This document shows, one piece after another, positions 2,437 through 59,018 of a stretch of 64,000 nt of DNA; within the stretch, counting starts at the first letter, position 1, and each line of letters begins with the position of its first letter. The stretch comes from an uncultured Dehalococcoidia bacterium (GTDB taxonomy: Bacteria > Chloroflexota > Dehalococcoidia > UBA2247 > RBG-13-53-26). The translations under genes were made by a program, and so were the position numbers. Under the pieces are notes generated by a model that did not search any database, had not been told where the DNA came from, and saw nothing but the letters and a program-made list of their open reading frames with translations. Location: the NCBI GenBank assembly GCA_964492335.1, contig CAZBJX010000006.1, forward strand, positions 1,963 through 65,962. Direction: 5' to 3'.

Positions 2437-2459
2437 ACGCGGCGTGGAGGACCTGTTGC

Positions 2460-2545: not shown

Positions 2546-2563
2546 AGTCAGGGAGGAAATGCC

Positions 2564-8071: not shown

Positions 8072-8343
8072 AGCACCTGGCCCGCCGGCGGCCCGGCCTG
8101 CTGAAGGCCCGAGCCGCCCGGTCCTCCATTGTACCCGAATACAGGCGGGGGTGATCAAGCCCTGAGGGCAGCGGCCCATCATCCTACGCGATCGATTCCG
8201 GCCTTGATTGACGCTGGTTTGGCGGCGATGGTAGTCTGGGAAACGCCCCGCCACCGCGAGTTGAGCTTGCCGTACAGCGATGGAAGGGCCCCGGCCTGAG
8301 CACGTATGTTGTACCGCCGGTTCCGGCGGAGAGGAGGCAGACC

Positions 8344-17637: not shown

Positions 17638-18678
17638 CTAACCCCCGCGGTAGGAGTACGGACGCAAGCGGTAGTAGGCTTTGAACTTCAGCCAGCGTGA
17701 GTAGAGGCCTCCGGGCTCGAGTATCAGGAAGGCCAGGATGACCACGGAAAACCCGACCAGGCTCAGGGCCACGTTCAGGTCGACCATGTTCGCCCGTTTG
17801 GTCACTTCGTCGATTATCATCTCCAGGCTCTTGAGGAATCCCACGCCCAGGAAGACCCCGGTGGTGCTGCCCATGCCGCCGATGGCCAGCATGCCGAAGT
17901 ACCATATAGAGTTGTTGATCTGATAGTGGTCCGGCGTGATCCAGAACTGGGAATAGGCCGAAAGCCAACCGGCCACGCCGGCGAACATGCAGCCGATGAA
18001 GAAGGCCAGCATCTTGTAGCGGAATATGTTGATGCCGCCGACCTCGGCAGCCAGCTCGTTGTCCCTGATGGCCACGAAGGCCCGACCAACGGGCATCCTC
18101 TGCAAGTTCTTGGCGAGGAACGTGCCTGCGAGCATCAAGGTGATGGCCACCAGGTAGATGCTTGCCCGGGATTTGAAGGCGTATCCGGCCACGGAAAGCG
18201 GGGCCACTGCCATCCCGTTGCCCCCGCCGGTCCAATCGGCGAAATACCGGATGATCCACAGGATGATGAAGTTGGCCGCCAGCGACGCGATGGCGATGTA
18301 GAACCCTTTCAGCCGGAAACTGGGGAGGCCGAAGATGACCCCCACCACTCCGGCGGCCACCGCCGCGATGGGCAGGCATACCAGGCCGGGAACGTCGTAC
18401 CGGCCGGCCAGGATGGCAGTGGTGTAGGCCCCCACCCCCACGAAAGCGGCCTGTCCGATGGAGAAGACGCCGCACAGCCCGGTCAGTATGTGCAGCCCCA
18501 GCACGGCCAGGACCACTATGGTCAGACCGGTAGCCCAGGTCACCCAGAAGTCTGCCACGAGCAGGGGCACTACGTAGAGGAACACGATAATCGCCGCCAG
18601 TATGACCCACTGGGTCTTTGTGCGCAGGATGGCCATGTCGCTCTCGTACTTGGTTGCGAAGATCCCGCTTGGTAGCAT
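17638..18678 (-). CDS. livM: Liv-type ABC transporter permease (LivM-like)
   Basis: Multiple TM segments; LivM-like conserved ...GYAGQLSLGQAAF... region (GVFSIGQAAFVGVGAY). Confidence 0.85.
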   Translation of the reverse strand: MLPSGIFATKYESDMAILRTKTQWVILAAIIVFLYVVPLLVADFWVTWATGLTIVVLAVLGLHILTGLCGVFSIGQAAFVGVGAYTTAILAGRYDVPGLVCLPIAAVAAGVVGVIFGLPSFRLKGFYIAIASLAANFIILWIIRYFADWTGGGNGMAVAPLSVAGYAFKSRASIYLVAITLMLAGTFLAKNLQRMPVGRAFVAIRDNELAAEVGGINIFRYKMLAFFIGCMFAGVAGWLSAYSQFWITPDHYQINNSIWYFGMLAIGGMGSTTGVFLGVGFLKSLEMIIDEVTKRANMVDLNVALSLVGFSVVILAFLILEPGGLYSRWLKFKAYYRLRPYSYRGG

Positions 18679-18717
18679 AGGTGCCTTCCTCTTGCCAGAT
18701 TCGGATGCGCGGGGGGA

Positions 18718-30699: not shown

Positions 30700-30802
30700 G
30701 GTCAATCTCCCTTCAGCTTTCTCTGTCGCTTGCCCTTGGTAACCGTCAGCCGCCTTGCGGCGGCGGCCCATCCCGTATCCGGCATCCCCCGTCTCCGCCT
30801 CA

Positions 30803-32824: not shown

Positions 32825-32834
32825 GGCTTGCTCC

Positions 32835-33638
32835 TCAGTCGTGGTCCACCACGTAGTTGCGCAATGTGCCGATCTTCTCGATCTTGATCTCGACGACATC
32901 GCCGGGCCTCATCGGGCCGATGCCGGACGGCGTTCCGGTGGCGATGACGTCCCCCGGCAGCAGGGTCATGATGCAGGATACGAAGCTGACGATCTGGTCC
33001 ACGCCGAAGATGAGGTCGCTGGTGCGCGCCGACTGGCGCAGTTCCCCATTGACGAAGGACTCCACGGCCAGGTCTTCGGGATCGGCCTCGATCTCGATCC
33101 ACGGGCCTATCGGCGCGAAGGTGTCGTGCCCCTTGGCCCTGGTCCACTGCCCATCTGACTTCTGAGAGTACCGCTCCGACACGTCGTTGAAGCAGGTGTA
33201 TCCCAGGACGTATCGCCTGGCCTGTTCCCGCGTGACCCCCCGGGCCTGCCGGCCGATGACCACGGCCAGCTCCGCCTCGTAGTCCACCCGGCGCCGGTCC
33301 TGCCGGGGCAGGACGATCCGGTCCTCCGGCCCGATGACCGCCGTGGGGGGCTTGAGGAAGAGGAGCGGAACAGCAGGAATAGGCAGGCCCGTTTCGATGG
33401 CGTGGCTGCGGTAGTTGACCCCCAGGCAGACGATCTTGGAAGGGGTGCAGGGGGCCAGCAGCTTCACCTCGTCCAGGCGGTGCTCCCGGCCGTCGAGCTG
33501 GTACTGCAACCCGTGCTGGCGGCGGGATGAAAACGGGCTGTTTTGGAAGGCCCAGACATGGTCGCCATCGATCATCCCGTACCGCGGCCGGCCGCCGCTC
33601 CTGAAGCGTACGATGCGCAAGCTCACCTCCCTGGCCAA
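32835..33638 (-). CDS. Fumarylacetoacetate hydrolase (FAH) family protein (2-keto-4-pentenoate hydratase / HpcE-like)
   Basis: CLGVNYRSHAIE, the metal-binding E/D pattern, GDVIATGTPSGIG near the C-terminus. Confidence 0.8.
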   Translation of the reverse strand: MAREVSLRIVRFRSGGRPRYGMIDGDHVWAFQNSPFSSRRQHGLQYQLDGREHRLDEVKLLAPCTPSKIVCLGVNYRSHAIETGLPIPAVPLLFLKPPTAVIGPEDRIVLPRQDRRRVDYEAELAVVIGRQARGVTREQARRYVLGYTCFNDVSERYSQKSDGQWTRAKGHDTFAPIGPWIEIEADPEDLAVESFVNGELRQSARTSDLIFGVDQIVSFVSCIMTLLPGDVIATGTPSGIGPMRPGDVVEIKIEKIGTLRNYVVDHD

Positions 33639-33773: not shown

Positions 33774-34760
33774 GTGACAAAAGAGCCATCTGTATCCAAG
33801 CGCATTGATCTCAGTGACCTGGACCTGCGGCTCATCAGGCTGCTGGAGTCCGACTCGCGGAGCACCCAGTCGGGGCTGGCGGCCAAGCTGGGCATCAGCC
33901 GCCCCACGGTGGGCGCCGTCATGCAGAAGCTGACGGAGGCCCGGGTGATACGGCCGGTGTGCCTGGCAGACCACGTGGCCCTGGGGTACACGGACAGCGT
34001 GGTCTTCGGCATCAACACCATGCCGGGGAAGATGCTCAAGGTGGCCGGGGCCCTGGCATCCATGGCCCCCGTTCACTGGGTCGCCGTCTGCGCCGGGCCC
34101 TTCGACATCATGGCCTGGGGCCTCTTCAAGGGGAGGGGCGAGGTGCTGGAGTTCCTGACAGGCGAGCTGGGCAGGGTGCGGGGCATGTCGCGGTTCGAGA
34201 CGGTGATGTGCCAGGAGGTCAAGATATCCCCGGCGCTCCTCTCCGCGGACGAGGGCTACCGGCCGGGCGGGAGGCAGGTCCCGCTGGACCGGCTGGACGT
34301 GGCCCTCATCGGCACGCTGCAGCGGGACAGCCAGCAGACCGCCGCCGACCTGGCCCTGAAGCTGCGCACCAGCAAGCCCACCATCCTGCGCCGGATGAAG
34401 CGGCTCCATGACGAGGGCGTCATCAGGCTGGTGACCATGGTCGATCCCCGGGCCCTGGGATACAGCCTGGTGGTCTCCTCGGGCCTCAAGGTGGCCCCCG
34501 ACAGGATCGACGAGGTGGTGGAGGCGGTGGGGAACCACCGCAGCGTGCACAGTGTGGCGCTGTGCACCGGGCGGTACGACGTGCTGGCCTGGATGATCTT
34601 CCGGGACCGGCCGGAGATGATGGACGTGCTGAGCGGCCAGCTGGGCAAGATCCATGGCATCAGGAGCATGGAGACCGTCACCTGTCTGAAGATAGTGAAG
34701 GCTTCGTTCATGTACGTGAACTGGCAAGGGGATCTCTGGGAGAGTCTGAAGGAGGAGTGA
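33774..34760 (+). CDS. Tandem (duplicated) Lrp/AsnC-family transcriptional regulator, paralog 2 (GTG start)
   Basis: Two AsnC-type halves (DLRLIRLLESDSRSTQSGLAAKLGISRPTVGAVMQKL...; DVALIGTLQRDSQQTAADLALKLRTSKPTILRRMKRL...). Confidence 0.8.
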   Translation: MTKEPSVSKRIDLSDLDLRLIRLLESDSRSTQSGLAAKLGISRPTVGAVMQKLTEARVIRPVCLADHVALGYTDSVVFGINTMPGKMLKVAGALASMAPVHWVAVCAGPFDIMAWGLFKGRGEVLEFLTGELGRVRGMSRFETVMCQEVKISPALLSADEGYRPGGRQVPLDRLDVALIGTLQRDSQQTAADLALKLRTSKPTILRRMKRLHDEGVIRLVTMVDPRALGYSLVVSSGLKVAPDRIDEVVEAVGNHRSVHSVALCTGRYDVLAWMIFRDRPEMMDVLSGQLGKIHGIRSMETVTCLKIVKASFMYVNWQGDLWESLKEE

Positions 34761-34768
34761 GCAGGCCA

Positions 34769-36691
34769 ATGAACTATGATCGTCTGTTTGAGCCCGGCAA
34801 GATCGGGAAGATGGACCTGAAGAACCGGATAGTGATGCCCGCCATGGGCGTCTCCCTGTCAGACGCCAGGGGGTCGGCCACTGACAGGGAGATCGCCTAC
34901 TATGCGGCCAGGGCCAGGGGAGGGGCGGCCCTCATCACGCCGCACTACGCCTCGGTCAGCGCCGATTCCTCGCTGCCGTACACCATCGTCATCAGCGACG
35001 ACGGGCAGGTGAAGCACTGGAAGGCCCTGGCCGATGCCGTCCATGCGGCCGGGTCCAAGCTGTCGGTGCAGCTGATGCACATCGGCATGATCTACCTGTA
35101 CTCGGGGTTCGTTCCTGAAGGCATGGCCATCAAGGTGCCCAGCACCACCCTGTGGCTGAAGAGCACCTACAGCTACCACGTGCTCAACGAAAAGGAGATC
35201 GAGGGGTACATCGAGGACTTCGGCCAGGCCGCCCGGCGGGCCAGGGAGGCCGGGGCTGACGCCGTCGAGCTGCATGCCTGCCACGGCTGCCTGGTCAGCA
35301 CCTTCATGTCCCCCCTGACCAACAAGCGGACGGACCAGTGGGGTGGGAGCGTGGAGAACCGGGCCCGGTTCGCCCGCCGGATACTGGAGCGCATGAGGGA
35401 GGTGGTGGGGCCGGAGTTCCCCATCATCGTGCGCATGAATGCCAGTGATGATATCGAAGGCGGCGTCAGCATAGAGGAGGCCATGGAGCAGGCCTCCATC
35501 ATGGAGAAGGCCGGCGCGGATGCCATCAGCGTGTCCTCCGGCATGGAGTTCTGGACGCCCCAGGGGATCCCGGCCTACCCCTTCCCGGAGGGGGCCATGG
35601 TCCCGCTGGCGGAGAAGATCAAGCAGGCGGTCAAGGTCCCGGTCATCGCCGCGGGCAAGATCACCCCCGAGGTGGCCGTCAGGGTCCTGGAGGAAGGCCA
35701 GGCCGATTTCGTAGCCCTGGGGCGGCCCCTGCTGGCGGACTCCGACCTGCCGAACAAGATCCGCGAAGGGCGCCGGGAGGACGTGCGGAACTGTCTCTAC
35801 TGCAACAACTGCCTGCGGATGGAGACGGGCACTCCGTCCTGCACCGTCAACCCCTTCCTCTTCCGGGAGTCCCGGTATCCGCTGAAGCCGGCGGAGAAGG
35901 CGAAGAAGGTCATGGTTGTCGGGGGAGGCCTGGCCGGGATGGAGACGGCCGTGCTCCTGGCCGAGCGGGGCCACAAGGCGACCATCTACGAGATGACCGG
36001 CGAGCTGGGCGGCCAGTGGAACGTGGCCTGCGCCTCGCCGGGGAAGGGCAGCTACCGGCACCTCACCGACTACCTGAACAAGCAGATAGCCCGGCTGAAG
36101 ATACCGGTGGAGCTCCACCAGCAGGTCACCCGCGACACGGTGATCAAGGCGGCGCCGGACACCGTGGTCCTGGCCACCGGCGCGGTGCCCATCGGCCTGA
36201 GAGTGCCGGGGGCTGACAAGAAGCATGTCATCCAGGGGCATGACGTCCTGGCGGGCAAGGTCGGCGTCCAGGGCCGGTCCGTGGTGGTCGGTGGCCGCTT
36301 CATCGGCATGGAGGTGGCCATCAAGCTGGCCGAAGAGGGCCAGCCGGTCTCCATCATCACCCGCGGGGGGCTGGGGGAGAACGGAGTGAAGCTGGAGAAG
36401 TTCACCTTCCAGTCCATCGCCAACAGGCTTATCGAGCTGGGGGTGCCCCTCTATCTGAACGCCACCGTGGTGGAGATCAACGACAAGTCGGTGATCATAA
36501 TGATGAACGGCGAGATATACCCGGTGCCGGCCGACACGGTGATCTTCTCCGTGGGCATGCGGTCGGTGGCCGGCCTGGCCAGGGAGCTGGAGGGGACCGG
36601 CATCGAGTATCACCTGGTGGGGGACTGCGTCAAGCCCAGGGATGCCTGCGAGGTCCACACCCAGGCGGCCAAGATCGCCGCGCTGATCTAG
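34769..36691 (+). CDS. Two-domain NADH:flavin oxidoreductase (OYE-like + FAD/NAD-binding), paralog 3; start ATG 34769 (MNYDRLFEPGKIGKM)
   Basis: HACHGCLVSTFMSP, NCLYCNNCL Cys cluster, VVGGGLAGMETAV Rossmann. GGAGGAG SD is embedded in the last codons of the upstream Lrp gene. The track ORF start at 34562 is an over-extension overlapping the Lrp gene. Confidence 0.85.
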   Translation: MNYDRLFEPGKIGKMDLKNRIVMPAMGVSLSDARGSATDREIAYYAARARGGAALITPHYASVSADSSLPYTIVISDDGQVKHWKALADAVHAAGSKLSVQLMHIGMIYLYSGFVPEGMAIKVPSTTLWLKSTYSYHVLNEKEIEGYIEDFGQAARRAREAGADAVELHACHGCLVSTFMSPLTNKRTDQWGGSVENRARFARRILERMREVVGPEFPIIVRMNASDDIEGGVSIEEAMEQASIMEKAGADAISVSSGMEFWTPQGIPAYPFPEGAMVPLAEKIKQAVKVPVIAAGKITPEVAVRVLEEGQADFVALGRPLLADSDLPNKIREGRREDVRNCLYCNNCLRMETGTPSCTVNPFLFRESRYPLKPAEKAKKVMVVGGGLAGMETAVLLAERGHKATIYEMTGELGGQWNVACASPGKGSYRHLTDYLNKQIARLKIPVELHQQVTRDTVIKAAPDTVVLATGAVPIGLRVPGADKKHVIQGHDVLAGKVGVQGRSVVVGGRFIGMEVAIKLAEEGQPVSIITRGGLGENGVKLEKFTFQSIANRLIELGVPLYLNATVVEINDKSVIIMMNGEIYPVPADTVIFSVGMRSVAGLARELEGTGIEYHLVGDCVKPRDACEVHTQAAKIAALI

Positions 36692-36788: not shown

Positions 36789-37892
36789 CTAGCCGGCGGG
36801 AGCTTGGCCCAGGGTGACCTCGGCGGTCCTGGTGGTCTGCCCCCGCATGAAGGTGGTCACGACCTTGTCGCCGGGAGAGCGGTCCTGAACAGCCGCCGCC
36901 AAGTCCTGGTTGGTGGCGATGTCCGTGTCGCCCAGCCGGACGATGACATCGAAGCGTATGAGGCCCGCCTCATGCGCCGGGCTGCCCGGGACCACCAGCC
37001 ACACCATCGCCCCCGAGTCCACCGGCAGGCGATACTGGGCTTGAATGGCGGCGGTGACGGTGTAGGTGCTCACCCCCATCCAGGCCGAGGACTCGTGCCC
37101 CCTCGTCACCAGTGAATGGATGGTGTCGATGGCGGTGTTGGTGCTTATGGCGAACCCGATATTCTCGGCGCCCGAGGCGATGGCGGTGTTGATGCCCACC
37201 ACCTGGCCGGCCATGTTCACCAGGGGGCCGCCGCTGTTGCCCGAGTTGATGGCGGCGTCGGTCTGGATGAGGTCGTCAAGCACCGCGCCGTTGGACTGCC
37301 CGATGGAGCGGCCCAGGTAGCTGATCACACCCTCAGTCCACGTGGGGCCGCCGGGCAGGGCCAGGGCATTGCCTACTGCCACCACATTTTCGAGCAGGGT
37401 CAGGTTCCCCAGGGAGTCGCTCAGGAAATGGGCATAGGGCAGGTCGGAGTCAGACCGGATCTGGACCACTGCCAGGTCCGTGGCCTCGTCCCCGGCCCAC
37501 TTGACGGCCTGGAGACTGCGGCCGTCGTTCAAGGTGACGGTGAGGCTGTTGGCATCCGCCACCACGTGGTTGTTGGTGACCACGATGCCCTCAGGATCGA
37601 TGATGATGCCGCTGGCGGCCCCGCTGGATGGGACTGCCCGGTAGAACATGTCGTAGGCCACGCCCTCCGTGGTGATGGAGACCACCGACGGCGCCAGCCG
37701 CGCCACCAGGTCAGTCTTGGAAAGGGCCGTTCCCACCTGGCCATCCACGTAGACGGGGCTCCAGTCGGCATTGATGGGCGTGTTGGCGGCATTGGCCGCG
37801 TTGTCGGGCGAGCCGCCCAGGCCGCAGGCCAGGCCGGCCCCCACCAGGCCCAGCACCAGAAGTGCTATCAGGACGTACTTTGCTCTCCGCAT
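36789..37892 (-). CDS. htrA: HtrA/DegP-family trypsin-like serine protease with PDZ domain (lipoprotein-type signal)
   Basis: Signal + LACGLGG lipobox-like. Catalytic H (VTNNHVV), D, and GNSGGPL Ser motif. C-terminal PDZ. Confidence 0.85.
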   Translation of the reverse strand: MRRAKYVLIALLVLGLVGAGLACGLGGSPDNAANAANTPINADWSPVYVDGQVGTALSKTDLVARLAPSVVSITTEGVAYDMFYRAVPSSGAASGIIIDPEGIVVTNNHVVADANSLTVTLNDGRSLQAVKWAGDEATDLAVVQIRSDSDLPYAHFLSDSLGNLTLLENVVAVGNALALPGGPTWTEGVISYLGRSIGQSNGAVLDDLIQTDAAINSGNSGGPLVNMAGQVVGINTAIASGAENIGFAISTNTAIDTIHSLVTRGHESSAWMGVSTYTVTAAIQAQYRLPVDSGAMVWLVVPGSPAHEAGLIRFDVIVRLGDTDIATNQDLAAAVQDRSPGDKVVTTFMRGQTTRTAEVTLGQAPAG

Positions 37893-38031
37893 GTCTCCTC
37901 CCTCTTCCAGAAAAGGGTCCTATCCAACAGGCTAGGCCAATTCCGCCTCCGTCGCAAGTTGGCCCGGCCGCATTTCTTCACCGCCTGGCGGTGGATCCCG
38001 CATCGCAGCTCATGTCATCGGAGTCGTCTGG

Positions 38032-38289
38032 TCATCGCCGGCGGTCTCGGCCGCTGTCAGGGCGGGGGGCGATGGTCACCTTGCCGTCCTCCATCTCCAG
38101 GACCATGTCCGCCCTGATAGCTATCTCCGGGGCGTGGGTGGCCACGATGACAGTCTTCCCGTCCCTGGTAAGGCTGTACAGGAGGTCCACGATGCGTCGG
38201 CTGGTCTTGGAGTCCAGGTTGCCGGTGGGCTCATCCCCCAGGACAATGGACGGGTCGTTGGCCAGGGCCCGGGCGATGGCCACCCGCTG
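38032..38289 (-). pseudogene. Truncated ABC-transporter ATP-binding protein remnant (MacB/LolD/FtsE type): retains only the end of the signature motif, Walker B and the H-loop; Walker A and Q-loop are missing
   Basis: Immediately after the permease TAG stop, the same frame continues [26 protein letters not shown]...IVATHAPE, i.e. the distal part of [14 protein letters not shown], Walker B and H-loop. No upstream N-terminal portion exists in any frame. Confidence 0.6.
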
Positions 38290-39615
38290 CTATTCATTGC
38301 GCAGTACCTCCGCGGGTCTGACTCGGGCGATGTACCAGGCGGGCAGCACGCTGGCTAGCACCGCCAGGAGGGCGGCCACGGCCAGGGCCCAGAGGAAGAT
38401 GGTCGGCGAGACCGTCACGTTGAGCCCGGCGACCCTCCCGCCCACCTCGGCGAACATGCCGCCCGGCCCGCCGGGGCCTCCTCCCGTGCCCGGTCCGGCG
38501 GCGCCCGTCGAGCTGCCGCCGGTCATCAGGTCAGCCACCTTCTGGGCCAGCGGATAGGTGATCAGGGCGCCGATGACGGCCCCCACCACGCTCACCACCA
38601 GCGTCTCCAGACTGAACTGCAGCCCGATACGCCAGTTTGAGGCCCCGATGGCCTTCATGATGCCGATCTCCTTCACCCTCTGCCGGATCATCAGGACCAC
38701 GGAGAAGAGGACCACCACCCCCGCCACGACGAAGGCCACTATCATGCCTATGTTGCTGGCGCTCTCGGTCGCGTCCACCGATCCGCCGATCTGCCGGTAC
38801 ATATCCTCGGCTGTGGTGACGTCGGCGGTCTCCTCATCGAAGACCTCCCGGATGCCCTGGACCACCGCTTCCACGTTGTCCACGTCGTCGGCCACGACGA
38901 TGACCGAGGTGACGCCGTCCAGATCGAATACCCGCTCCGCCGCCTGGATCGGCATGACAATGGTGTTGTTGGCGAAGACCGTGCCGCTGTCGTAGATGCC
39001 GACCACCACAAGCTCCGTGCCCTCCATATCCACCGTGGAGCCCACCGTCAGGCTGTTGGCCTCAGCCAGCGCCTGGCCGACCACCATTTCGTCCGCGTAG
39101 TCCGAGGTGAGGTAGCTGCCCTCCACCAGTTCGAACGTGCCGCCGCCCATCAGCGTCGGGCTGTCGGCAGCGGCACTGACTCCCATGACCTGGATGCCCA
39201 TGGTGAACCGGCCCGATGGAGGGGCAGGCATGCCGGAGGAGTCGCTTCCCTTGGGCCTCTGGCCGGGGGGCGTCCCTATGGTGCCCGCATCCACCCCTGA
39301 CTCCAGGCTGTCGCCGGTATACTGCGTCTGCACGGTGGCCTGCACCGAGGCCACGTGCTCAATGCCGCTCAACTGGTCCACGCTATCCGCATCCAGGGGT
39401 TCGCCGCCGCCCATGCCTCCGAAGGACCCCGCCGACCGTACGGTGATCTCGGTGCCGATCTGGCCCCCTATCTTCCCCAGTTCGCTCCGGGTGGCGGCGT
39501 GAACGGTGGCCATTGTCAGGGCCAGCCCGATACACGCGGCCAGCAGCACCACCATCAGGATGGTGCGCAACGGGCTGCGAACCAGGTTGCGCAGTGACCT
39601 CAACAGCAGACTCAT
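38290..39615 (-). CDS. FtsX-like ABC transporter permease (MacB-type, large periplasmic domain); start trimmed to MSLLLRSLRNLVRSPLRT
   Basis: N-terminal TM, ~250-aa extracytoplasmic domain, three C-terminal TM helices with the FtsX signature (MIRQRVKEIGIMKAIGASN). Confidence 0.8.
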   Translation of the reverse strand: MSLLLRSLRNLVRSPLRTILMVVLLAACIGLALTMATVHAATRSELGKIGGQIGTEITVRSAGSFGGMGGGEPLDADSVDQLSGIEHVASVQATVQTQYTGDSLESGVDAGTIGTPPGQRPKGSDSSGMPAPPSGRFTMGIQVMGVSAAADSPTLMGGGTFELVEGSYLTSDYADEMVVGQALAEANSLTVGSTVDMEGTELVVVGIYDSGTVFANNTIVMPIQAAERVFDLDGVTSVIVVADDVDNVEAVVQGIREVFDEETADVTTAEDMYRQIGGSVDATESASNIGMIVAFVVAGVVVLFSVVLMIRQRVKEIGIMKAIGASNWRIGLQFSLETLVVSVVGAVIGALITYPLAQKVADLMTGGSSTGAAGPGTGGGPGGPGGMFAEVGGRVAGLNVTVSPTIFLWALAVAALLAVLASVLPAWYIARVRPAEVLRNE

Positions 39616-39870
39616 GCCTTGGACCTTTCTGTCCCGCCTGACATTGCCCTGGGTGTCCCCTCTTGACGTTCTCCCCATGGCTGAAGCCAAGGGGCTTGCG
39701 GCCTTCGTTCTCCTGGTCAATGCGGGACGACGGGCGTGCCTTCTTCTCCCTCGCTCCAGACTATAGCATCCTGCTTCACCTTCTTCCTCCGCAGCATTGT
39801 GCCTGGTCATAATGGAAGGCTAGCACGCCGCAGGTGAAGTGGCGGCAAAGGAGGTCGGCCTGCCGGCACG

Positions 39871-44262: not shown

Positions 44263-44295
44263 GGCGCGGCTTCATGCCAGGGAGGATAAACCGGG

Positions 44296-46737
44296 ATGGT
44301 CATGGAAGCCAGTGAAGCGAAGGCGGCCGGGGGCAGGCCCTGCCGGCCCAGCACTCCCCGGACCCGCAGGCTGAAGGAAGTCTACATGGGGCACAGGCCC
44401 GGCATCTGTGTCGAACGCAGCGTGCTGGTCACCGATTCCTACCGGAAGACGGAGGCCCTCCCGCCGGTGCTGCGGCAGGCCATGGCCTTCGACCGGGTGC
44501 TGTCGGAGATGCCCATCTGGGTCCAGGACGGCGAGCTTATCGCGGCCAACATCGCCTCGAGGCCCAGGGGGGCCTTTCTCTTCCCGGAATACGACGACAC
44601 CTGGCTGAAGAGGGAGCTGGACACCATCTCCACCAGGAAGGATGACCCCTGGCTTCTGAGCGATGAGGACAAGGCCCGGGTCAGGGGCTGCATGGACTAC
44701 TGGCGGGGCCGCAGCCTCTCCGCGGTGTGCGACGCGCTGACCGTGGACGAGGTGCGGCAGGCGGAGAGGAACTCCTTCATCGACATCCGCATGGGCAAGC
44801 AGGGCGGCATCGGGCACATCGTGCCCGATATCGAAACGGTCATAGAGCGGGGCCTGAACTCGTTGATAGAAGCGGCCGAGGACCATATCCGGCGCCTGGA
44901 CCTGGCCAACCCCGAGGGATTCGCCAGGCTGCCCTTCCTGCGGGCGGTGGTGATAGCGGACAGGGCGGTGATCAAGTGGGCCGGGCGGTTCGCCGCGCTG
45001 GCCAGGGAGAGGGCGGCGGCGGAGCCGGACCCCGGGAGGAAGCGGGAGCTCGAGCAGATGGCCGAGGCCTGCGAGCGGGTGCCGGCCCATCCGGCCCGCA
45101 GCTTCCACGAGGCCCTGCAGGCGGTGGCCCTCATCATGGCCTCGGTCCAGATAGAGACCAACGGGGTCTCCATCGGGACGGGACGGCTGGACCAGTACTG
45201 CTTCCCACATTATGAGAGGGACATCAGGGCGGGGGCGATCACCCGGGAGCAGGCGCTGGAGCTGCTGGAGTGCCTGTGGCTCAAGCTGGCCGAATCGAAC
45301 CGGGTGGTGAGCGAGGGATTCACCCACACCCAGAGCGGCTATCCCTTCTGGATCCAGGTGCCGATAGGGGGGCAGACCGTGGACGGCTACGATGCCACCA
45401 ACGATCTGTCCTACCTCCTGTTGGAGGTGTCCAGCAACATGCAGCTCCACGAGCCCACGGTGTCGGCCAGGATACACAAGAGGACGCCGGACGTCTTCCT
45501 CATGAAATGCTGCGAGGCCATCAGGGCCCATGGGGGAGGCAACCCCGCCCTGTTCAACGACGAGGTCATCATCCCCAGCCAGCTGGCCTGGGTCCCCGGA
45601 ATCACCAAGGAGGACGCCTATGACTACTCGGTGATCGGCTGCTCCGAGATCGCCTTCGCCGGCAAGGGGACCGAGGGCATCGCCTACCACGCCATGAGCC
45701 TGGGCCGGGTCCTGGAGCTGATGCTCCAGGGGAAGGACCCGGTGACCGGGGCGCCGCTGGCGTCAGGCCCGGGCGGCATGCTGCAGTGGCGGACCTTCGA
45801 CGACATGATGGAGGCCTTCACTGAGAAGGTGCGGGCCCTCTCCCGGGCCATGTTCCTGCAGCAACTGCCGCTGATCGAGGCCCACGTGGCCCACCGGCCC
45901 TGCCCGCTCCTCTCCTCCCTGACCAGGGACTGCATCAGCCGGGGCCGCAGCTACTATGACGGCGGGGCCCTGTACGGGAACCGCGCGGCCAACGCGTGCA
46001 TCGTCGGCCTGGCCACCCTGGCCAACTCGCTGGCGGCGGTCAGGAGGCTGGTCTTCGACGACCGGGCCATCACCATGGACCAGCTGAAGCATGCCCTGGA
46101 GACCAACTTCGAGGATACGGCCACCAGCCCCACGGGCCCGGCCATCCGCCAGATGTGCCTGCGCGCCCCGAAGTACGGCAACGACGACCCATACGTGGAC
46201 CGCCTGGCCAAGGACAGCCTGAACATCGTGGTGAGGGAGATGCGCAGGCACCAGACCCGGCCGGGCCAGGGCTACGGGGCCACCATCTCCCCGGTGACGG
46301 CCCACATGAGCTACGGGGCCATCTGCGGCGCCACGCCCGACGGGCGGAGGGCGGGGGAGCCCCTCAGCGACTCCTGCTCGCCGGCCCAGGGCACCGATGT
46401 CAACGGCCCGACGGCGGCCATCAAGTCGGTGGCCGGACTGGAGCACATGAACCTGGTGCAGGGGACGATCTTCAACATGAAGATGCACCCCGGGCCCCTG
46501 GAGACCCGGGCGGGAATGCGCAAGTGGGCGGACCTGGTCCGCACCTACTTCGACCTGGGGGGGTGGGAGGTCCAGTTCAACGTGGTCAGCTCAGACACCC
46601 TGAGGGAGGCGCAGCGGCGCCCCGAGGAGCACCGGGACCTGGTGGTCCGGGTGGTGGGCTACAGCGCCTTCTTCGTGGAGCTGGAGAAGGTGGTCCAGGA
46701 CGACATCATCGCCAGGACGGAGCACTGCGGGGCGTAG
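44296..46737 (+). CDS. Glycyl radical enzyme, PFL-like fold, eliminase class (Cys-x-Glu active loop), substrate unknown
   Basis: C-terminal glycine-radical motif RVVGYSAFF. Active-site loop VIGCSEIAF (Cys-x-Glu as in glycerol/propanediol dehydratase, CutC and HypD, not the Cys-Cys of PFL). N-terminal ICVERSVLVTDSYRKTE...IWVQDGELIAAN typical of GRE dehydratases/lyases. 813 aa. Confidence 0.9.
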   Translation: MVMEASEAKAAGGRPCRPSTPRTRRLKEVYMGHRPGICVERSVLVTDSYRKTEALPPVLRQAMAFDRVLSEMPIWVQDGELIAANIASRPRGAFLFPEYDDTWLKRELDTISTRKDDPWLLSDEDKARVRGCMDYWRGRSLSAVCDALTVDEVRQAERNSFIDIRMGKQGGIGHIVPDIETVIERGLNSLIEAAEDHIRRLDLANPEGFARLPFLRAVVIADRAVIKWAGRFAALARERAAAEPDPGRKRELEQMAEACERVPAHPARSFHEALQAVALIMASVQIETNGVSIGTGRLDQYCFPHYERDIRAGAITREQALELLECLWLKLAESNRVVSEGFTHTQSGYPFWIQVPIGGQTVDGYDATNDLSYLLLEVSSNMQLHEPTVSARIHKRTPDVFLMKCCEAIRAHGGGNPALFNDEVIIPSQLAWVPGITKEDAYDYSVIGCSEIAFAGKGTEGIAYHAMSLGRVLELMLQGKDPVTGAPLASGPGGMLQWRTFDDMMEAFTEKVRALSRAMFLQQLPLIEAHVAHRPCPLLSSLTRDCISRGRSYYDGGALYGNRAANACIVGLATLANSLAAVRRLVFDDRAITMDQLKHALETNFEDTATSPTGPAIRQMCLRAPKYGNDDPYVDRLAKDSLNIVVREMRRHQTRPGQGYGATISPVTAHMSYGAICGATPDGRRAGEPLSDSCSPAQGTDVNGPTAAIKSVAGLEHMNLVQGTIFNMKMHPGPLETRAGMRKWADLVRTYFDLGGWEVQFNVVSSDTLREAQRRPEEHRDLVVRVVGYSAFFVELEKVVQDDIIARTEHCGA

Positions 46738-46761
46738 CCGGTGGGCCACGGAGCGGGCACC

Positions 46762-47697
46762 ATGAGCGTGGCGATCTCCGGGCAGGTCTTCAACATCCAG
46801 CGCTACTCCATTCACGACGGCGCCGGGATCAGGACCCTGGTCTTCCTCAAGGGCTGCCCGCTGCGGTGCCTGTGGTGCTGCAACCCGGAGTCCCAGAAGG
46901 GCGGCCCGGAGCTGGGCTTCATCGCCTCCCGCTGCGTCGGGGACAGGGGGTGCGGGGCGCCCTGCGTCCCCGCCTGCCCCATCAGCGCCATCCGGCTGGG
47001 CCCGGAGGGCCGGCCGGAGATCGACCGGGCGGCCTGCGACGCCTGCGGCCGGTGCGCCGCGGCCTGCGGCCCAGAGGCGCTCAGGGTGGTCGGCCGGGAG
47101 ATGACCGTCGCCGGGGTGATGGCGGAGGTGGAGAAGGACCGCCCCTTCTACCGGCGGTCCGGCGGGGGTATGACGGTGGGGGGCGGCGAGCCTCTGGCGC
47201 AGCACCGCTTCGCCGCGGCGCTGCTGGAGGCGGCCCGGGACGCCTACCTGCACACGGCGCTGGAGACCTGCGGCCACGGCCCGTGGGCCCATCTTGAAGG
47301 GCTGCTCAGGCATGTCGACCTGCTGCAGTTCGATATCAAGCACATGGACGCCGCCAGGCACCGGGAGCTGACCGGGCAGTCCAACGACCTGGTGCTGGCC
47401 AACCTCAAGAGGGTGCCGGCCGTGAAGCCCCCCGGAGAGGTGATCATCAGGGTCCCGGTGGTCCCGGGGTGCAATGACTCGGCGGACAACGTGCGGGAGA
47501 CGGCGGCGCTGGTGGCCGGGCTGGGCTTCCGGCAGGTGGAGCTGGTGCCCTACCACCGGCTGGGGGCCCCCAAGTACGTCCAGTACGGCATCCCGGACCC
47601 GCTGCCGGACTGCCCTTCAGCCTCTGGGGGCCGCCTGGAGGAGCTCAGGAGGATTGTAGAAGAGGCCGGCCTGACGGAGACAGGCGGGACCATCTGA
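46762..47697 (+). CDS. Glycyl-radical enzyme activating protein (radical SAM, with additional 2x[4Fe-4S] ferredoxin-type inserts)
   Basis: CPLRCLWCCNPE (CxxxCxxC radical SAM). Ferredoxin Cys blocks CVGDRGCGAPCVPACP and CDACGRCAAACGP. Typical of activases for eliminase-class GREs. Confidence 0.9.
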   Translation: MSVAISGQVFNIQRYSIHDGAGIRTLVFLKGCPLRCLWCCNPESQKGGPELGFIASRCVGDRGCGAPCVPACPISAIRLGPEGRPEIDRAACDACGRCAAACGPEALRVVGREMTVAGVMAEVEKDRPFYRRSGGGMTVGGGEPLAQHRFAAALLEAARDAYLHTALETCGHGPWAHLEGLLRHVDLLQFDIKHMDAARHRELTGQSNDLVLANLKRVPAVKPPGEVIIRVPVVPGCNDSADNVRETAALVAGLGFRQVELVPYHRLGAPKYVQYGIPDPLPDCPSASGGRLEELRRIVEEAGLTETGGTI

Positions 47698-49575: not shown

Positions 49576-50085
49576 ATGACAGGCAAGGGCAAGGAGGCCC
49601 CGGATTTCTCCGCTGCCGACAGCGAAGGCCGCAATGTGAGGCTCTCCGACTTCAAGGGGCGCAAGAACGTCGTGCTGGTGTTCAACCGGGGCTTCTCCTG
49701 ACCCCACTGCCGGAAGCACATGGCGCAGTTGCGTCATGACTACCAGGGGTTCGTGGACCGGCAGACGGAGGTCATCGCCATCGGCCCGGAGACCCCGGAG
49801 GCCTTCGCCCGCTGGTGGCGCAGAAACCGGATGCCCTTCATCGGCATCGGTGATCCCCGGCATGTCATCGCCGGGCTCTTCGGCCAGCAGGTGAAGCTGC
49901 TGAAGCTGGGGCGCATGCCGGCGCTGTTCGTGATCGATAGAGAGGGGCGGATGCGCAACGTGCATCGCGGGACGTCCATGGGGGACATCATGGCCAACGA
50001 GGAGGTACTGGCCCTGCTGGACGATATCAACCTGGAGCGGCCCACAGGGGGGGCCTCCCCCGGCGCTCCCGGGCAGAGTAGATGA
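49576..50085 (+). CDS. Selenocysteine-containing peroxiredoxin (PrxU-like, AhpC/TSA-redoxin fold); UGA at 49699-49701 decoded as Sec at the peroxidatic position
   Basis: Track ORFs 49483..49701 and 49720..50085 are in the same frame, separated only by TGA. Read-through gives ...RKNVVLVFNRGFS-U-PHCRKHMAQLRHDYQGF...IAIGPETPE...PALFVIDREGRM.... FS-U-P aligns with Prx FVCP/FTPxC. GGGGAAGGAG SD precedes ATG 49576. Confidence 0.65.
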
Positions 50086-53982: not shown

Positions 53983-54534
53983 CTACACCACGGCCTCGGT
54001 CTGCATCCTGTGCTCGCCCCGCAGGAACCCCACGGTCAGCCGGTGGCCCGGCGCCAGCCCGGCCAGCACCCGGGCCAGGTCGTCCGCGGTGCTGATGGGG
54101 CGCAGGTTGACCTCGATGATGATATCACCCTGCTGCAGGCCGGCGCTCTCCGCCGGCGAGCCGGGCCTGACGCTGCCCACGAAGGCCCCGAAGAGTGGCA
54201 CGGCCCCCGCCTTCCTGGAGACCCTGCTGGCGTCGGCGATCTTGAGGCCGAAGGACACCCTCGGAGGGGCCTTGGCCCCGCCCGGCCCGGTCCCCGGCCC
54301 GCCCCGGGCGGCCAGCAGCTCTTCCAGCCGCTGCCGGTCGAACCCGATGACGTGCTCGTCGCCCACCGCGATCACGGGGACGCCCATCTGGTTGGTCCTG
54401 CGCACCATTTCCTCGGCGGCCACACGGTCCTTCGAGACGTCCTTCTCGATGTAGGGGATGCCCTTCTGCGAAAGGAACTCCTTCGCGTAGACGCAATACG
54501 GTCAAGTCGGGGTCGTGTAGAGCGTGATTTCCAT
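53983..54534 (-). CDS. Selenocysteine-containing glutaredoxin-like domain fused to a C-terminal PDZ domain; UGA at 54502-54504 decoded as Sec in a U-P-Y-C redox motif
   Basis: The minus strand from ATG 54532-54534 reads MEITLYTTPT-U-PYCVYAKEFLSQKGIPYIEKDVSKDRVAAEEMVRRTNQMGVPVIAVGDEHVIGFDRQRLEELL, a canonical glutaredoxin/NrdH layout with TGA replacing the first Cys of CPYC. It is in frame with track ORF 53983..54423 (PDZ-like GSPAESAGLQQGDIIIEVN). GAAGGGAGAAGG SD precedes the ATG. Confidence 0.6.
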
Positions 54535-54571
54535 TGCCTTCTCCCTTCAGGACTTGTCCCGGCCGGCAACC

Positions 54572-54614: not shown

Positions 54615-57266
54615 CTACGGCCCGCGGCGGCCGGCTGCGGACTTGTTGTCGGCCTTCCCGGCCGGCTTCTCTTCAGCCTCCCGGGCCTTCTCAAACATGA
54701 TGCCGTCATCCCCGGCGTCGATGGTCACCCGGTCGCCGTCCTTGAACGTGCCGTCCAGCACCTTGAAGGCCAGCGGGTCCAGCATGCGCCGCTGGATGGT
54801 CCGCTTCAGGGGCCTGGCCCCGTAGTTCGGGTCGAAGCCTTCGCTCACCAGGAACTCCCGGGCGGCGTCGGTCAGCTCCACCGTCATGTGGCGCTCCTCC
54901 AGCCTCCGCTGCAGGCCCCTCATCTGGATGTCGACGATCTGCATGATCTGGTCGCGGCTAAGGGTGTGGAAGATGATGATCTCGTCCACCCGGTTGAGGA
55001 ACTCCGGCCGGAAGTGCGAGCGCAGCTCCTCGGTGACGCGCTGGCGGACCTCGTCCTCGCGGTCCGGGCCCAGGTCGGTGAACCAGTGACTGCCCAGGTT
55101 GCTGGTCATGATGACCACGGTGTTCTTGAAATCGACGGTGCGGCCGTGGCCGTCGGTCAGCCGGCCGTCCTCCAGTATCTGCAGCAGGGTATTGAAGACA
55201 TCCGCGTGGGCCTTCTCGATCTCGTCGAAGAGCACCACGGAGTACGGGCGCCGCCGCACGGCCTCCGTAAGCTGCCCCCCCTCGTCGTAGCCGATGTACC
55301 CCGGCGGAGCGCCGATGAGCCGGGACACGGTATGCTTCTCCATGTACTCAGACATGTCCAGCCTTATCATGGCCTGCTCGTCGTCGAACAGGAACTCCGC
55401 CAGCGCCCGGGCCAGCTCCGTCTTGCCCACGCCCGTGGGGCCCAGGAAGATGAAGCTCCCCAGGGGGCGGTTGGGGTCCTGGAGCCCCGCCCTGGCGCGC
55501 CGGATGGCATTGCTCACGGCGCTCAGGGCCTCGTCCTGCCCCACCACGCGCTGGTGAAGGCGGTCCTCCATCGTCAGCAGCTTGTGGACCTCGCCCTCCA
55601 CCAGCTTGCTGACGGGGATGCCGGTCCAGTGGCTCAAGACCTCGGCGATGTCCTCTTCGTCCACCTCTTCCTTGAGCATCCTCTCGCCGTGGCCGGTGTC
55701 GGCCAGGCCGTCCTCCATTTCCTTCAGGCTCTTGATCAGATCCACCAGGCTGCCGTACTTGAGGCGGGCCGCCCTCTCCAGGTCTCCGGACTGCTCGGCC
55801 TGCGCCACTTCCACCTTGGCCTGCTCGATCTGCTCCTTGAGCCTCTGCATGCCGCCGATGGACTCCTTCTCCTGCTGCCACTGCGCCCGCAGGCGGTTGC
55901 CCCGCTCCTTCAGGTCGGCCAGCTCCTTGTCGATGTTGGCCAGCCTCTCCTTCGACGTGCTGTCGGTCTCCCTCATGAGCGCCTGTCGCTCGATCTCCAG
56001 CTGCATGGTGCGCCGCTGCACTTCGTCGAGATTGGCGGGCACGCTGTCGATCTCCATGCGCAGCCGGCTGGCCGCCTCGTCCACCAGGTCGATGGCCTTG
56101 TCCGGCAGGAAACGGTCGCTGATGTAGCGGTGGGACAGCACGGCGGCGGCCACCATGGCGGCGTCCTTGATGCGCACGCCGTGGTGCACCTCGTAGCGCT
56201 CCTTCAGGCCGCGCAGGATGCTGATGGTGTCCTCCACCGAGGGCTCCACCACCATCACCGGCTGGAAACGGCGCTCCAGGGCGGCATCCTTCTCGATGTG
56301 CTTGCGGTACTCGTTGAGAGTGGTGGCCCCCACGCAGTGCAGCTCCCCTCGGGCCAGCATGGGCTTAAGCATGTTGGAGGCGTCCATGGCGCCCTCGGCG
56401 GCGCCGGCGCCGATCACCGTGTGCAGCTCGTCGATGAAGAGGATGGTCCGGCCCTCGGACTCGGTGATCTCGCGGAGCACCGCCTTGAGCCTCTCCTCGA
56501 ACTCCCCCCGGTACTTGGTGCCGGCCACCATGGAGCCCAGGTCCATGGCCACCAGGCGCTTGTCCTTCAGCCCTTCGGGCACGTCCCCCTTCACGATGCG
56601 CTGGGCCAGCCCCTCGACGATGGCCGTCTTGCCCACGCCCGGCTCGCCGATGAGGACCGGGTTGTTCTTGGTGCGCCGCGACAGGACCTGGATCACGCGG
56701 CGGATCTCCTTGTCGCGCCCGATCACCGGGTCGAGCTTGCCGCGGCGGGCGATCTCCGTCAGGTCCCGGCCGTATTTCTCCAGGGCCTGGTACTTCCCCT
56801 CGGGGTTGAGGTCCGTCACCCGCTGGCCCCCGCGGATGGTAGTCAGCGCCTGGTAGATGCTGTCCCTGGTGACGCCGTGGCTGTCGAGCAGCCGGGTGGC
56901 CGGGCCCTTTTCGCCGTCGGCGACAATGGCCGTCAGCAGGTGCTCGGTGCTGACATAGTCGTCCCTGAGCCGCTCGGCTTCCTGCCGGGCGTTGTCCAGG
57001 GCCCTCTTCAAACGGGGGGACATGACCAGCTGCACCGGGCCGTATGCCTTCGGCTGCCGGTCCAGCTCGGCCTTCATCTGCTGCCTGACCTGCCGCAGGT
57101 CCACACCCAGCTTCAGCAGCAACTGCGGGACCACGCCGTCGGCCTGCTCCAGCAGGGCCGTCAGCAGGTGCTCCACGTCCAGCTGACTGTGATTGGCGTT
57201 CTCGGCGATCTGCTGGGCCGCCAGGATGGCCTCCTGGGCCTTCTCAGTGAACTTGTTCAGGTCCAT
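54615..57266 (-). CDS. clpB: ATP-dependent chaperone ClpB
   Basis: N-domain [18 protein letters not shown]. Two AAA+ modules ([15 protein letters not shown]; [15 protein letters not shown]). Long middle coiled-coil. 883 aa. Confidence 0.95.
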
Positions 57267-57310: not shown

Positions 57311-58324
57311 TCATCCGCGCAGCCGGGCCAGCTCCTCGAAGAGCTTGCGCTCCTTGTCCGAGAGCTTGTCCGGAAGCACGACCGATACCTCCGCGAGGAG
57401 GTCGCCGTGCTGTGCCGGCTCGCCCAGCCGCGGCATGCCCTTGCCCTTGAGCCGGAACACCCGCCCGTTCTGCGTCTCGGCCGGGATCTTCAGCGCCACC
57501 TTGCCGTTCAGGTTGGGGACGGTCACCTCACCTCCCAGCACCGCCGTCGTCAGGGGCACTTTGAGCCTGGAGTGGAGGTCGTCCCCCTTGCGCTCGAAGG
57601 TGCTGTGCGGCAGGATGTGCACCACCAGGTAGAGGTCGCCGGCCGGGCCGCCTCCCATCCCCGGCCCTCCCTGCCCCGCCAGCCGCACCTTCGACCCCTC
57701 CTGCACGCCGGCCGGGATCCTGGCCTCTATGCGGCGGGACTTCCCGCTGCCGCCCTCCATCTGGAACATGCGGGTGGTCCCGCTGTATGCCTCCTCCAGG
57801 GTGATCTCTATGGGCTGCTCGAAGTCCTGGCCCCGCCGCGCCCGCCCGGCGGTGCGGTAGCGCCCGCCGGCGCCCGGGCCCGCACCGGGTTGGTCGCCGA
57901 AGAAGGTGTGGAAGAAGCTGGAGAAGGGGCTCTCACCGCCGCCGCCGAAGAGGTCCTGCAGGTCCTCCTCGGTCATGGTCTGGTAGTGGACGCCGCCGCC
58001 GCCGCGGCTGCCTGGCTGGCCGGCGCCGGCGAAACCGTAGCGGCTCCAGTCGAACGGCTGCCCGCCGGCCCCGCCGCCGGCCTTCTGCCACTGCTCGTAC
58101 TCCTTCCAGTGGGCCCCGAGCTCGTCGTACTTCTTGCGCTTCTCCTGGTCTCCGAGGACCTCGTAGGCTTCGTTGATCTCCTTGAACCTGGCCTCGGCTT
58201 CCTTGTTGCCGGGGTTCACGTCCGGATGGTGCTGGCGGGCGAGCTTGCGGTAGGCCGCCTTGATTTCCTTGGCGGTGGCCTTCTTGTCCACGCCCATTAT
58301 CTTGTAGTAGTCCTTGTAGTCCAT
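57311..58324 (-). CDS. J-domain co-chaperone (DnaJ/CbpA-like, no zinc-finger domain; Gly-rich linker)
   Basis: DYYKIMGVDKKATAKEIKAAYRKLARQHHPD with the HPD motif. Gly-rich region. C-terminal substrate-binding domains. No CxxCxGxG repeats. Confidence 0.85.
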   Translation of the reverse strand: MDYKDYYKIMGVDKKATAKEIKAAYRKLARQHHPDVNPGNKEAEARFKEINEAYEVLGDQEKRKKYDELGAHWKEYEQWQKAGGGAGGQPFDWSRYGFAGAGQPGSRGGGGVHYQTMTEEDLQDLFGGGGESPFSSFFHTFFGDQPGAGPGAGGRYRTAGRARRGQDFEQPIEITLEEAYSGTTRMFQMEGGSGKSRRIEARIPAGVQEGSKVRLAGQGGPGMGGGPAGDLYLVVHILPHSTFERKGDDLHSRLKVPLTTAVLGGEVTVPNLNGKVALKIPAETQNGRVFRLKGKGMPRLGEPAQHGDLLAEVSVVLPDKLSDKERKLFEELARLRG

Positions 58325-58748: not shown

Positions 58749-59018
58749 TCAGTTCTCGTGCGGAGAGCCGGCGCTCTTCCCGGCGCGCCGGCGGCCTTCG
58801 CGGGCCAGCCATTGCTCGAACTTCTCCATGTCGTTGTCTATCAGGCAGTCGGACAGGTAGTTGGGGAACTCGCGGCGCGCCCGGCACAACAGGCACACCC
58901 CGTGACTGGTGCGGGACTGGGCCGGGTCGATCATCCAGTGGTGTCGGCACCCGACCGCCTTGGCCGCGGCCCCCGTCGAGGGGTCTTGCTTCTCCGTCGT
59001 CGCTGCTATGTTGACCAT
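58749..59018 (-). CDS. Small Cys/His-rich protein A (89 aa; C-x19-C-x2-C-x12-C, CRHHW motif)
   Basis: Strong GGAGGG SD and high GC3 codon usage. Own TAGAAT -10 element. Zinc-ribbon-like Cys spacing. Confidence 0.55.
   Translation of the reverse strand: MVNIAATTEKQDPSTGAAAKAVGCRHHWMIDPAQSRTSHGVCLLCRARREFPNYLSDCLIDNDMEKFEQWLAREGRRRAGKSAGSPHEN

Follow-up and report, generated by a model that had tools for sequence, protein, structure and literature searches.

Introduction

Glutaredoxins with selenocysteine (Sec) in the active site (PF00462, UxxC) are counted in two reviews among the experimentally verified prokaryotic selenoproteins. In Clostridium oremlandii, the glutaredoxin cGrx1 occurs natively as a selenoprotein whose active site reads U(C)-P-x-C; its structure was obtained from a Sec-to-Cys protein, and it has been proposed to be the reductant of the selenoprotein MsrA (PMC7642778); work on cGrx1 is also credited to Kim et al. 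2011, as cited in PMC13188914 and PMC7642778. Selenoproteins that bear a PDZ domain are represented in these two reviews by a single named family, the Trx7/PDZ (seleno)protein NF041199. Metagenome-assembled genomes (MAGs) of Dehalococcoidia, with 49 and 46 selenoprotein genes, have been placed among the richest bacterial selenoproteomes in a 2026 database paper (PMC13326102). Here we describe a gene found on a 64-kb stretch of DNA from an uncultured Dehalococcoidia bacterium (contig CAZBJX010000006.1), hereafter the window, which is the scope of all window-level statements. In this gene, hereafter Grx-PDZ, a glutaredoxin-like (Grx) domain is fused to a PDZ domain, and an in-frame UGA, which is very probably decoded as Sec, takes the place of the first active-site Cys.

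Results

The complete coding sequence of Grx-PDZ occupies positions 53983-54534 of the minus strand, as delimited by translation, by Pfam and NCBIfam matches and by 20 related loci that carry the same in-frame TGA. Read along that strand, a Shine-Dalgarno-like purine tract GAAGGGAGAAGG (54537-54548, by direct reading of the sequence) is separated by the two nucleotides CA from the ATG (54534-54532), which opens ten sense codons reading MEITLYTTPT (54505-54534); these are followed by the TGA (54504-54502) and then by PYCVYAKEFLSQKG, and the frame continues uninterrupted to a TAG (53985-53983), giving 183 sense positions with the UGA counted in. A preliminary description of this DNA had proposed just such an arrangement, from the Shine-Dalgarno sequence through the ATG and the TGA into an open frame with a PDZ domain, and both its coordinates and its sequence proved accurate. 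The ten N-terminal codons correspond to beta-strand 1 of the Grx fold and are the part of the gene that is lost by gene callers.

For profile and homology searches, the U of the read-through product was read as C. Residues 3-74 (54313-54528, minus strand) form a glutaredoxin-like domain of the YruB/cGrx1 type, which matched Pfam Glutaredoxin PF00462 over residues 3-62 with an E value of 3e-19 (69.4 bits against a cut-off of 22.9) and passed the cut-off of NCBIfam TIGR02196 (YruB-family glutaredoxin-like; 94 bits against 88.55). Its cis-Pro loop reads GVPV and is accompanied by a GFD motif, in place of the classical TVP and GG-x-DD, and its best match in the PDB is 7c10, 'dithiol cGrx1' (phmmer E 1e-17, residues 2-75). 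The T-U-P-Y-C of the window protein, in which U11 is the in-frame UGA, aligned with the T-C-G/P-Y-C of full-length homologs, where Cys11 opens CGYC or CPYC, and with the T-C-P-H-C of cGrx1, the resolving Cys standing at +3. The TGA had been claimed to fall on the first active-site Cys of a glutaredoxin; it does share the column of the first Cys of CxxC in the full-length homologs, and the read-through product is recognized by Grx models.

Another glutaredoxin-like family, the Uxx-star glutaredoxin-like (seleno)protein NF041212, is the NCBI name on some Cys-form Grx-PDZ homologs. We rejected it for the window protein, which reached 60.2 bits against a cut-off of 66 with model positions 1-66 of 70 aligned. 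The name implies what we take to be a C-terminal U-x-x-stop motif, and the window protein has none at its end: it goes on into linker and PDZ domain and finishes with ...TEAVV.

Residues 75-93 (54256-54312, minus strand) make up a linker rich in Gly, Pro and Ala, of which both length and sequence vary among homologs, and residues 94-183 (53986-54255, minus strand) are an HtrA-type PDZ domain. The Pfam models PDZ_6, PDZ_2 and PDZ all matched over approximately residues 94-179 (E 1e-13 to 6e-9). In the conserved F-G-L carboxylate-binding loop, G96 is invariant, and F95 and L97 are each found in at least 90% of the family. The best matches of this part of the protein, by sequence as well as by structure, are the PDZ1 domains of DegQ and DegP and the PDZ domain of RseP, and Foldseek superposed the PDZ model on DegP/HtrA PDZ domains with a root-mean-square deviation of 2.1-2.7 Å. 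Two whole-protein identities that involve a PDZ domain were also rejected. Against the HtrA/Do protease model TIGR02037 the window protein scored 51 bits, with a cut-off of 416, in the PDZ domain only and with no Trypsin_2 match, and against the Trx7/PDZ family NF041199 it scored 30.4 bits, with a cut-off of 300, in the PDZ region only. At a distance of 16 kb (36789-37919, minus strand) the window also encodes a genuine HtrA-like protease, with Trypsin_2, PDZ_2 and an N-terminal membrane or signal segment, so that the genome has a classical protease-PDZ protein beside Grx-PDZ.

We examined the fold on an AlphaFold (AF2) model of P0014, which among the full-length Cys homologs is the one closest to the window protein (61% identity). 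With a mean predicted local distance difference test (pLDDT) of 85, the model has a canonical Grx fold (beta-alpha-beta-alpha-beta-beta-alpha), a PDZ fold and a disordered linker in which residues 78-80 fall below a pLDDT of 50. It superposes on 7c10 at 1.1 Å, with 50% identity. The predicted template modelling score (pTM) of 0.53 indicates that the Grx and PDZ domains have no fixed orientation. A structure search with this model found no solved structure in which the two domains are joined.

We then consider how the gene appears in other genomes. Among 5.8 billion proteins we found 382 relatives. Those at about 50-60% identity, the more distant ones, are Grx-PDZ proteins of full length (171-185 residues) that have CGYC or CPYC, while the closest (64-98% identity) are all short, with 131-163 residues, and start either at an internal Met or just past the point where the TGA stands. 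Among the best 150 matches of the window's 172-residue post-UGA open reading frame (ORF) in 1.84 billion cluster representatives, 19 are full length with CxxC, 66 are short sequences without the N-terminal motif, beginning for the most part immediately past it, and 65 are unrelated long multi-PDZ proteins; the 66 short representatives are an upper bound for Sec forms, because some are contig-end fragments. The public names of the cut-short products are 'S1-C subfamily serine protease', 'PDZ' or 'glutaredoxin 3', where there is a name at all.

Since the public calls of all close relatives are proteins of 134-169 aa truncated at the N-terminus, and since a GTG at 54423 opens a 146-aa ORF, the UGA might be a true stop, in which case the product would be a PDZ domain alone, or a Grx fragment with a PDZ domain, made from an internal GTG or ATG, and the ten upstream codons would be no part of it. 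However, the region that separates the UGA from the internal starts shows conservation at the protein level, and it completes a Grx domain for which both beta-strand 1 and the active-site residue are required. The Cys-form orthologs are full length, and the Sec-specific hairpin described below would be left without a purpose. The DNA itself adds to this. We compared the loci behind the relatives together with one genome per species in GTDB, and obtained 28 related loci, of which 20 have an in-frame TGA at the exact column of the first Cys (T-TGA-PYC, T-TGA-PWC, T-TGA-GYC and T-TGA-PFC) and 8 have TGT or TGC there; so many TGAs in one column greatly exceed what chance would give. Among the 20 TGA-bearing loci, identity falls to about 41%. 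In the codons ahead of the TGA, the relatives keep the pattern M-x-[VI]-x-[VIL]-Y-[ST]-[ST]-P-T and differ at third codon positions; a peptide that is kept while its synonymous sites vary indicates that these ten codons, which are preceded by the Shine-Dalgarno-like tract, are translated. A true stop is thus very unlikely.

The Sec reading would also fall if the TGA were an error of sequencing or assembly, for which one base change from TGC or TGT suffices, or the mark of a pseudogene. However, TGA, and not the TGC or TGT that the preliminary description had allowed for, is present in all four independent assemblies, namely four near-identical Logan contigs from four different sequencing runs, reached via the Prx fragment P0121, which are 99-100% identical to the window and differ from it elsewhere at a few positions. 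The TGA also recurs in the 20 diverged loci, and the domains encoded downstream are intact and conserved, so that we give this explanation next to no credence, less than any other.

The related loci are nearly all labelled Chloroflexota, mostly Dehalococcoidia, and judging by their sequences the Sec form of Grx-PDZ is widespread in Chloroflexota and cut short by gene callers. When the neighbour-joining tree is rooted at its midpoint, every deep branch is Sec, and the Cys forms lie in a nested clade in which Sec and Cys alternate. This topology suggests, with some uncertainty in the rooting, that Sec may be ancestral in Grx-PDZ and that several switches to Cys came later. One contig (L015, JBLNDL010000002.1) comes with a Sphingomonadaceae MAG label, yet carries a Chloroflexota-type Sec Grx-PDZ gene (T-TGA-PWC and hairpin), and it is probably mis-binned.

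Downstream of the UGA we identified a hairpin, GCGAAGG-AGUUC-CUUUCGC (54468-54486, minus strand), whose stem starts 18 nt from the U of the UGA, leaving a 15-nt spacer. This hairpin is conserved, covarying and specific to the Sec forms, by which we mean the window and 20 loci (n = 21), as opposed to the Cys forms (n = 8). The stem begins at exactly this distance in 21/21 Sec forms and in no Cys form, and it is 6-8 bp long; the apical loops are GUU, AGUU(C), GGUU, GUUU or GCUU, and each of the 21 has a G as its first or second nucleotide, with GU in 20 of them. When the same 27-nt slot was folded in both groups, the energies did not overlap (-8.9 +/- 1.1 kcal/mol for Sec against -3.5 +/- 1.2 kcal/mol for Cys; Mann-Whitney U = 0, p = 2e-5). 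In the synonymous-recoding control, 20 of the 21 Sec forms are more stable than at least 97.8% of the recodings of their own peptide, the exception being L028 (p = 0.066), whereas a p value below 0.05 was obtained for one of the eight Cys forms (L010, p = 0.039). A covariance model built from the Sec forms gave them 42-70 bits as against 13-26 bits for the Cys forms; its alignment included Cys forms and chance matches and was used for scores alone.

An ungapped covariation count on the hairpin exceeded the controls only slightly, since in six of the sequences the hairpin is shifted by one nucleotide, and a register-free tabulation together with the recoding control took its place. In that tabulation, the second pair from the base of the stem is C-G (12), U-A (7) or U-G (2) and the third is G-C (17), C-G (3) or U-A (1). 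Through these changes the Ala/Val wobble base is coupled with the codon of a variable residue (Ser, Asp or Gly), which argues for selection on RNA pairing and not on the protein. The hairpin goes with the UGA even between near relatives, as in L021 (Cys) and L023 (Sec), which are 87% identical, and in L016 (Sec) and L024 (Cys), which are 76% identical. We regard it as a putative, strongly supported element of the selenocysteine insertion sequence (SECIS) type. The selenoprotein reading that the preliminary description had given to the in-frame UGA is supported by the conserved TGA column, the Sec-specific hairpin and the independent assemblies.

The structure that had first been pointed out in this region was a different one, a 5-bp stem (UUGCG/CGCGA) beginning 5 nt past the UGA. 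That stem exists, but it is not a Sec-specific recoding element, since the Cys forms pair equally well or better, and we rejected it as the SECIS: its forced energy is -2.0 kcal/mol in the Cys forms and +0.8 kcal/mol in the Sec forms. Across the family 74% of its cells are paired, a pairing potential that arises for the most part from near-invariant Cys (UGY) and Ala/Val (GYN) codons. It also overlaps the 5' arm of the conserved hairpin, with which it competes for the same bases.

One strain variant (L086) differs from the window within 54475-54500 by a synonymous TAT>TAC and by a TTC>TTT in the SECIS loop, with the TGA unchanged. The latter change adds an A-U pair and brings the stem to 8 bp, as in most relatives.

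A systematic scan of the window for TGAs that interrupt a frame coding on either side of them brought up a single further credible case, a Prx/AhpC-like gene about 4 kb from Grx-PDZ (49576-50085, plus strand) that would be a second selenoprotein gene. It reads ...VVLVFNRGFS-TGA-PHCRKH... (UxxC), with the UGA at 49699-49701, and is followed at 49719-49738 by an 8-bp hairpin, CAUGGCGC-AGUU-GCGUCAUG, which starts 20 nt from the UGA and resembles that of Grx-PDZ. Two loci from other genomes, L089 and L090, read FNRGFT-TGA-PYC and FNRGFL-TGA-PFC and have the same GGCGC-AGUU-GCGCC core. As with Grx-PDZ, the TGA is retained in the four independent assemblies, and the closest relatives are cut off at the point of the TGA, the distant ones being full length; gene callers split the gene into pieces of 41 and 121 aa. 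Its product has as best NCBIfam match a SelL-related redox protein, at 72.7 bits below the cut-off of 120. The gene is flanked by those of a Cyt-b5/DUF2231 membrane protein and of a DUF5661 protein, an arrangement that is conserved in L089.

This second gene bears on another explanation, in which the UGA is read as Trp, Gly or Cys through a reassigned code or near-cognate suppression. UGA is reassigned in some bacterial lineages, and the failure to see Sec machinery in the window, to which we return below, would fit with such a reading. However, TGA is the most frequent normal stop in the window, where it ends 22 of the 46 ORFs of at least 150 aa, and this argues against a reassigned code. In addition, in-frame TGAs in the window are limited to the catalytic Cys column of two thioredoxin-fold genes, each with a positioned hairpin that has a G in its loop. 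Insertion of a standard amino acid is therefore about as improbable as a true stop. The second UxxC gene with a TGA, together with the heavy use of Sec known for the class Dehalococcoidia (PMC13326102), constitutes indirect but strong evidence that the organism decodes Sec.

On the same strand as Grx-PDZ and upstream of it, across a gap of 81 nt, the ORF list places ClpB (54615-57266, minus strand), whose position is shared in L001, L005, L006 and L007; a terminator scan of the gap found no terminator-like site on that strand. Upstream of ClpB lies DnaJ (57311-58324, minus strand), identified by synteny and by Pfam on the relatives, which has no Cys-rich zinc-finger region and would be of the J-domain/CbpA type. 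The window also encodes a small Cys/His-rich protein with C-x-H-H-W ... C-x-x-C (58749-59018, minus strand), for which linkage to Grx-PDZ was seen in 12 of 29 loci. This neighbour has about 85-110 residues and a core C-x-H-[HYF]-W-x-I-[ED]...G-x-C-x-x-C-G...F-x-N, belongs to no Pfam family, and ends 14-51 nt upstream of Grx-PDZ in six loci (L009, L014, L016, L021, L023 and L024). It has the look of a zinc ribbon, and it may act as a partner of Grx-PDZ, serve as its substrate or regulate it. A Crp/Fnr regulator (cNMP_binding and HTH_Crp_2) occurs at most 6 kb from Grx-PDZ in ten loci (L008, L009, L010, L014, L016, L018, L020, L021, L023 and L024), in six of them about 0.7 kb upstream; the copy in L002 is located further upstream.

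Elsewhere in the window, three paralogous fusion reductases of about 700-770 residues (28579-30891 and 30803-32908 on the minus strand, 34412-36691 on the plus strand) combine Oxidored_FMN with Pyr_redox_2 and are of the old-yellow-enzyme/2,4-dienoyl-CoA-reductase type. Clustered with them are a glycyl-radical enzyme with its activase (44290-47697), two tandem-AsnC regulators, an aldehyde:ferredoxin oxidoreductase (6152-8353) and a prismane/CdhA-like protein with HypA and HypB (1-6138), and taken together these genes suggest an anaerobic lifestyle. At 38032-38289 (minus strand), the C-terminal half of an ABC ATPase, without Walker A, follows in frame after the TAG of an FtsX/MacB permease ORF (38290-39819) and may represent a pseudogene or else a gene that has been truncated or rearranged. 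Finally, a protein of 825 residues (2543-5020, plus strand) has a signal-peptide-like N-terminus, two Ig-like segments, a C-terminal membrane anchor and about 14 tandem repeats of about 40 residues (...YDGS-W--M-SGT---L-GVWG-S--DVFAVG...) with a propeller-like appearance, and it gave no Pfam match at E 1e-5.

Discussion

On the reading that we favour, the UGA at codon 11 would be recoded to Sec during translation to yield a selenoprotein of 183 residues. A SelB-type elongation factor with Sec-tRNA(Sec) would presumably bind the hairpin situated 15 nt past the UGA. As the protein opens directly on beta-strand 1, it lacks a signal peptide and any membrane segment, and we infer that it is cytoplasmic. 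Its redox chemistry can be proposed because of its homology to cGrx1: the U-P-Y-C centre would cycle between selenol/thiol and selenenylsulfide, with a presumed reductant, and the protein would act as a protein disulfide or mixed-disulfide reductase. PDZ domains of the HtrA family bind C-terminal hydrophobic peptides of unfolded clients. By a similar targeting role, the PDZ domain of Grx-PDZ could tether the enzyme to the exposed C-termini or hydrophobic tails of presumed client proteins. The gene may be co-transcribed with clpB, and the protein is probably expressed with ClpB and DnaJ in what would be a stress or proteostasis response.

These elements can be brought together in a wider proposal, in which an ancestrally Sec family of Chloroflexota, with Cys arising secondarily several times, would be a client-targeted selenoreductase in a stress module with the small C-x-H...C-x-x-C protein, Crp/Fnr and, in this clade, DnaJ and ClpB, its PDZ domain passing oxidatively damaged or unfolded C-termini to the U-P-Y-C centre. 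We offer this combined proposal tentatively and, taken in its entirety, consider it rather unlikely; if true, it would provide a selenium-dependent, direct link between thiol repair and the disaggregase machinery.

Several observations weigh against decoding as Sec or against the functions just proposed. The window has no tRNA gene, and ARAGORN found no tRNA-Sec in the window or in the 28 related loci. Likewise, no SelA, SelB or SelD domain was found in the flanks of the related loci or in the window, where about 50 of about 55 ORFs were covered by Pfam, the membrane-permease-like ORF at 17638-18717 and a few ORFs under 100 aa being judged by eye. Missing selA, selB, selC and selD genes say little, because a small part of each genome is visible. 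No SECIS or tRNA-Sec model of Rfam was matched, either at the gathering threshold over the whole window or at E values up to 10 over both UGA regions; the bacterial SECIS models of Rfam are gene- and lineage-specific. Taken over its full length, the 81-nt region shows no unusual stability compared with dinucleotide shuffles (z = -0.24), the specific hairpin alone standing out. As for function, the P0014 model with its pTM of 0.53 has no defined contact between the Grx and PDZ domains, which leaves PDZ-guided delivery to the active site structurally unsupported, and the linkage to DnaJ and ClpB is confined to the window's own clade, with other neighbours in other clades.

The Sec-decoded Grx-PDZ gene is of interest first of all for annotation, since such genes would be mis-annotated across public databases as fragments without their catalytic residue. 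They might be repaired by a simple rule, that of an in-frame TGA at the CxxC column combined with a hairpin at +18. The bacterial selenoproteome would gain a redox domain with its own substrate-recognition module. The family is also a clean natural series of Sec/Cys switches, with pairs up to 87% identical, in which a minimal 19-nt putative SECIS comes and goes with the UGA, and it could be useful for the study of SECIS evolution within coding sequence and of recognition by SelB in Chloroflexota. Nothing is overturned by these results; Sec-glutaredoxins and selenoprotein-rich Dehalococcoidia are known already, and specialists would find the gene plausible rather than surprising.

The preliminary description had presented the selenoglutaredoxin-PDZ protein as uncharacterized. 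This holds for the PDZ fusion, which we did not find described in the two selenoprotein reviews or in full-text literature searches, although BSepDB may list the gene under 'Grx', and the words 'PDZ domain' are absent from the text of a 2009 survey of glutaredoxin domain combinations. It does not hold for the Sec-glutaredoxin with UxxC, which is already characterized, with the structure 7c10. Thus only the PDZ fusion appears to be new, the selenoprotein type (Grx UxxC) being known.

In position, size and loop composition, the hairpin of Grx-PDZ agrees with bacterial SECIS elements, as these are reportedly described for fdhF and in the bSECIS model of Zhang and Gladyshev from 2005. Like elements of the Escherichia coli fdhF type, it lies within the coding sequence shortly 3' of the UGA, with its apical loop about 22-25 nt from the UGA and a G, usually GU, at loop position 1 or 2. 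Unlike them, it is short (6-8 bp), without a bulged U and without an evident lower helix.

The closest counterparts of the PDZ domain are the PDZ1 domains of HtrA, DegP, DegQ and DegS, which are fused to a protease, whereas here the fusion is to a redox domain. The Trx7/PDZ family NF041199 shares with Grx-PDZ the combination of a thioredoxin-fold redox domain with a PDZ domain, as well as the existence of Sec forms. However, its redox domain is Thioredoxin_7, its motif is CxxU and its length is about 390 residues, so that the likeness is one of analogy and not of whole-protein homology. The proteins of TIGR02196 are single-domain Cys proteins of about 74 residues, in contrast to the window protein with its predicted Sec and its added PDZ domain. 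With the Grx selenoproteins (PF00462, UxxC), Grx-PDZ has in common the fold, a UGA at the catalytic Cys, Cys homologs and a SECIS-like hairpin. It shares in particular with cGrx1 (PDB 7c10, 7c12 and 7c13) the small Grx fold, a Sec, here predicted, as the first residue of U-P-x-C and the resolving Cys at +3; cGrx1, however, stands alone, is about 85 residues long and comes from the Firmicutes, and reduction of selenoprotein MsrA with GSH has been proposed for it, while the window protein belongs to the Chloroflexota and extends the same domain by a linker and a C-terminal PDZ domain.

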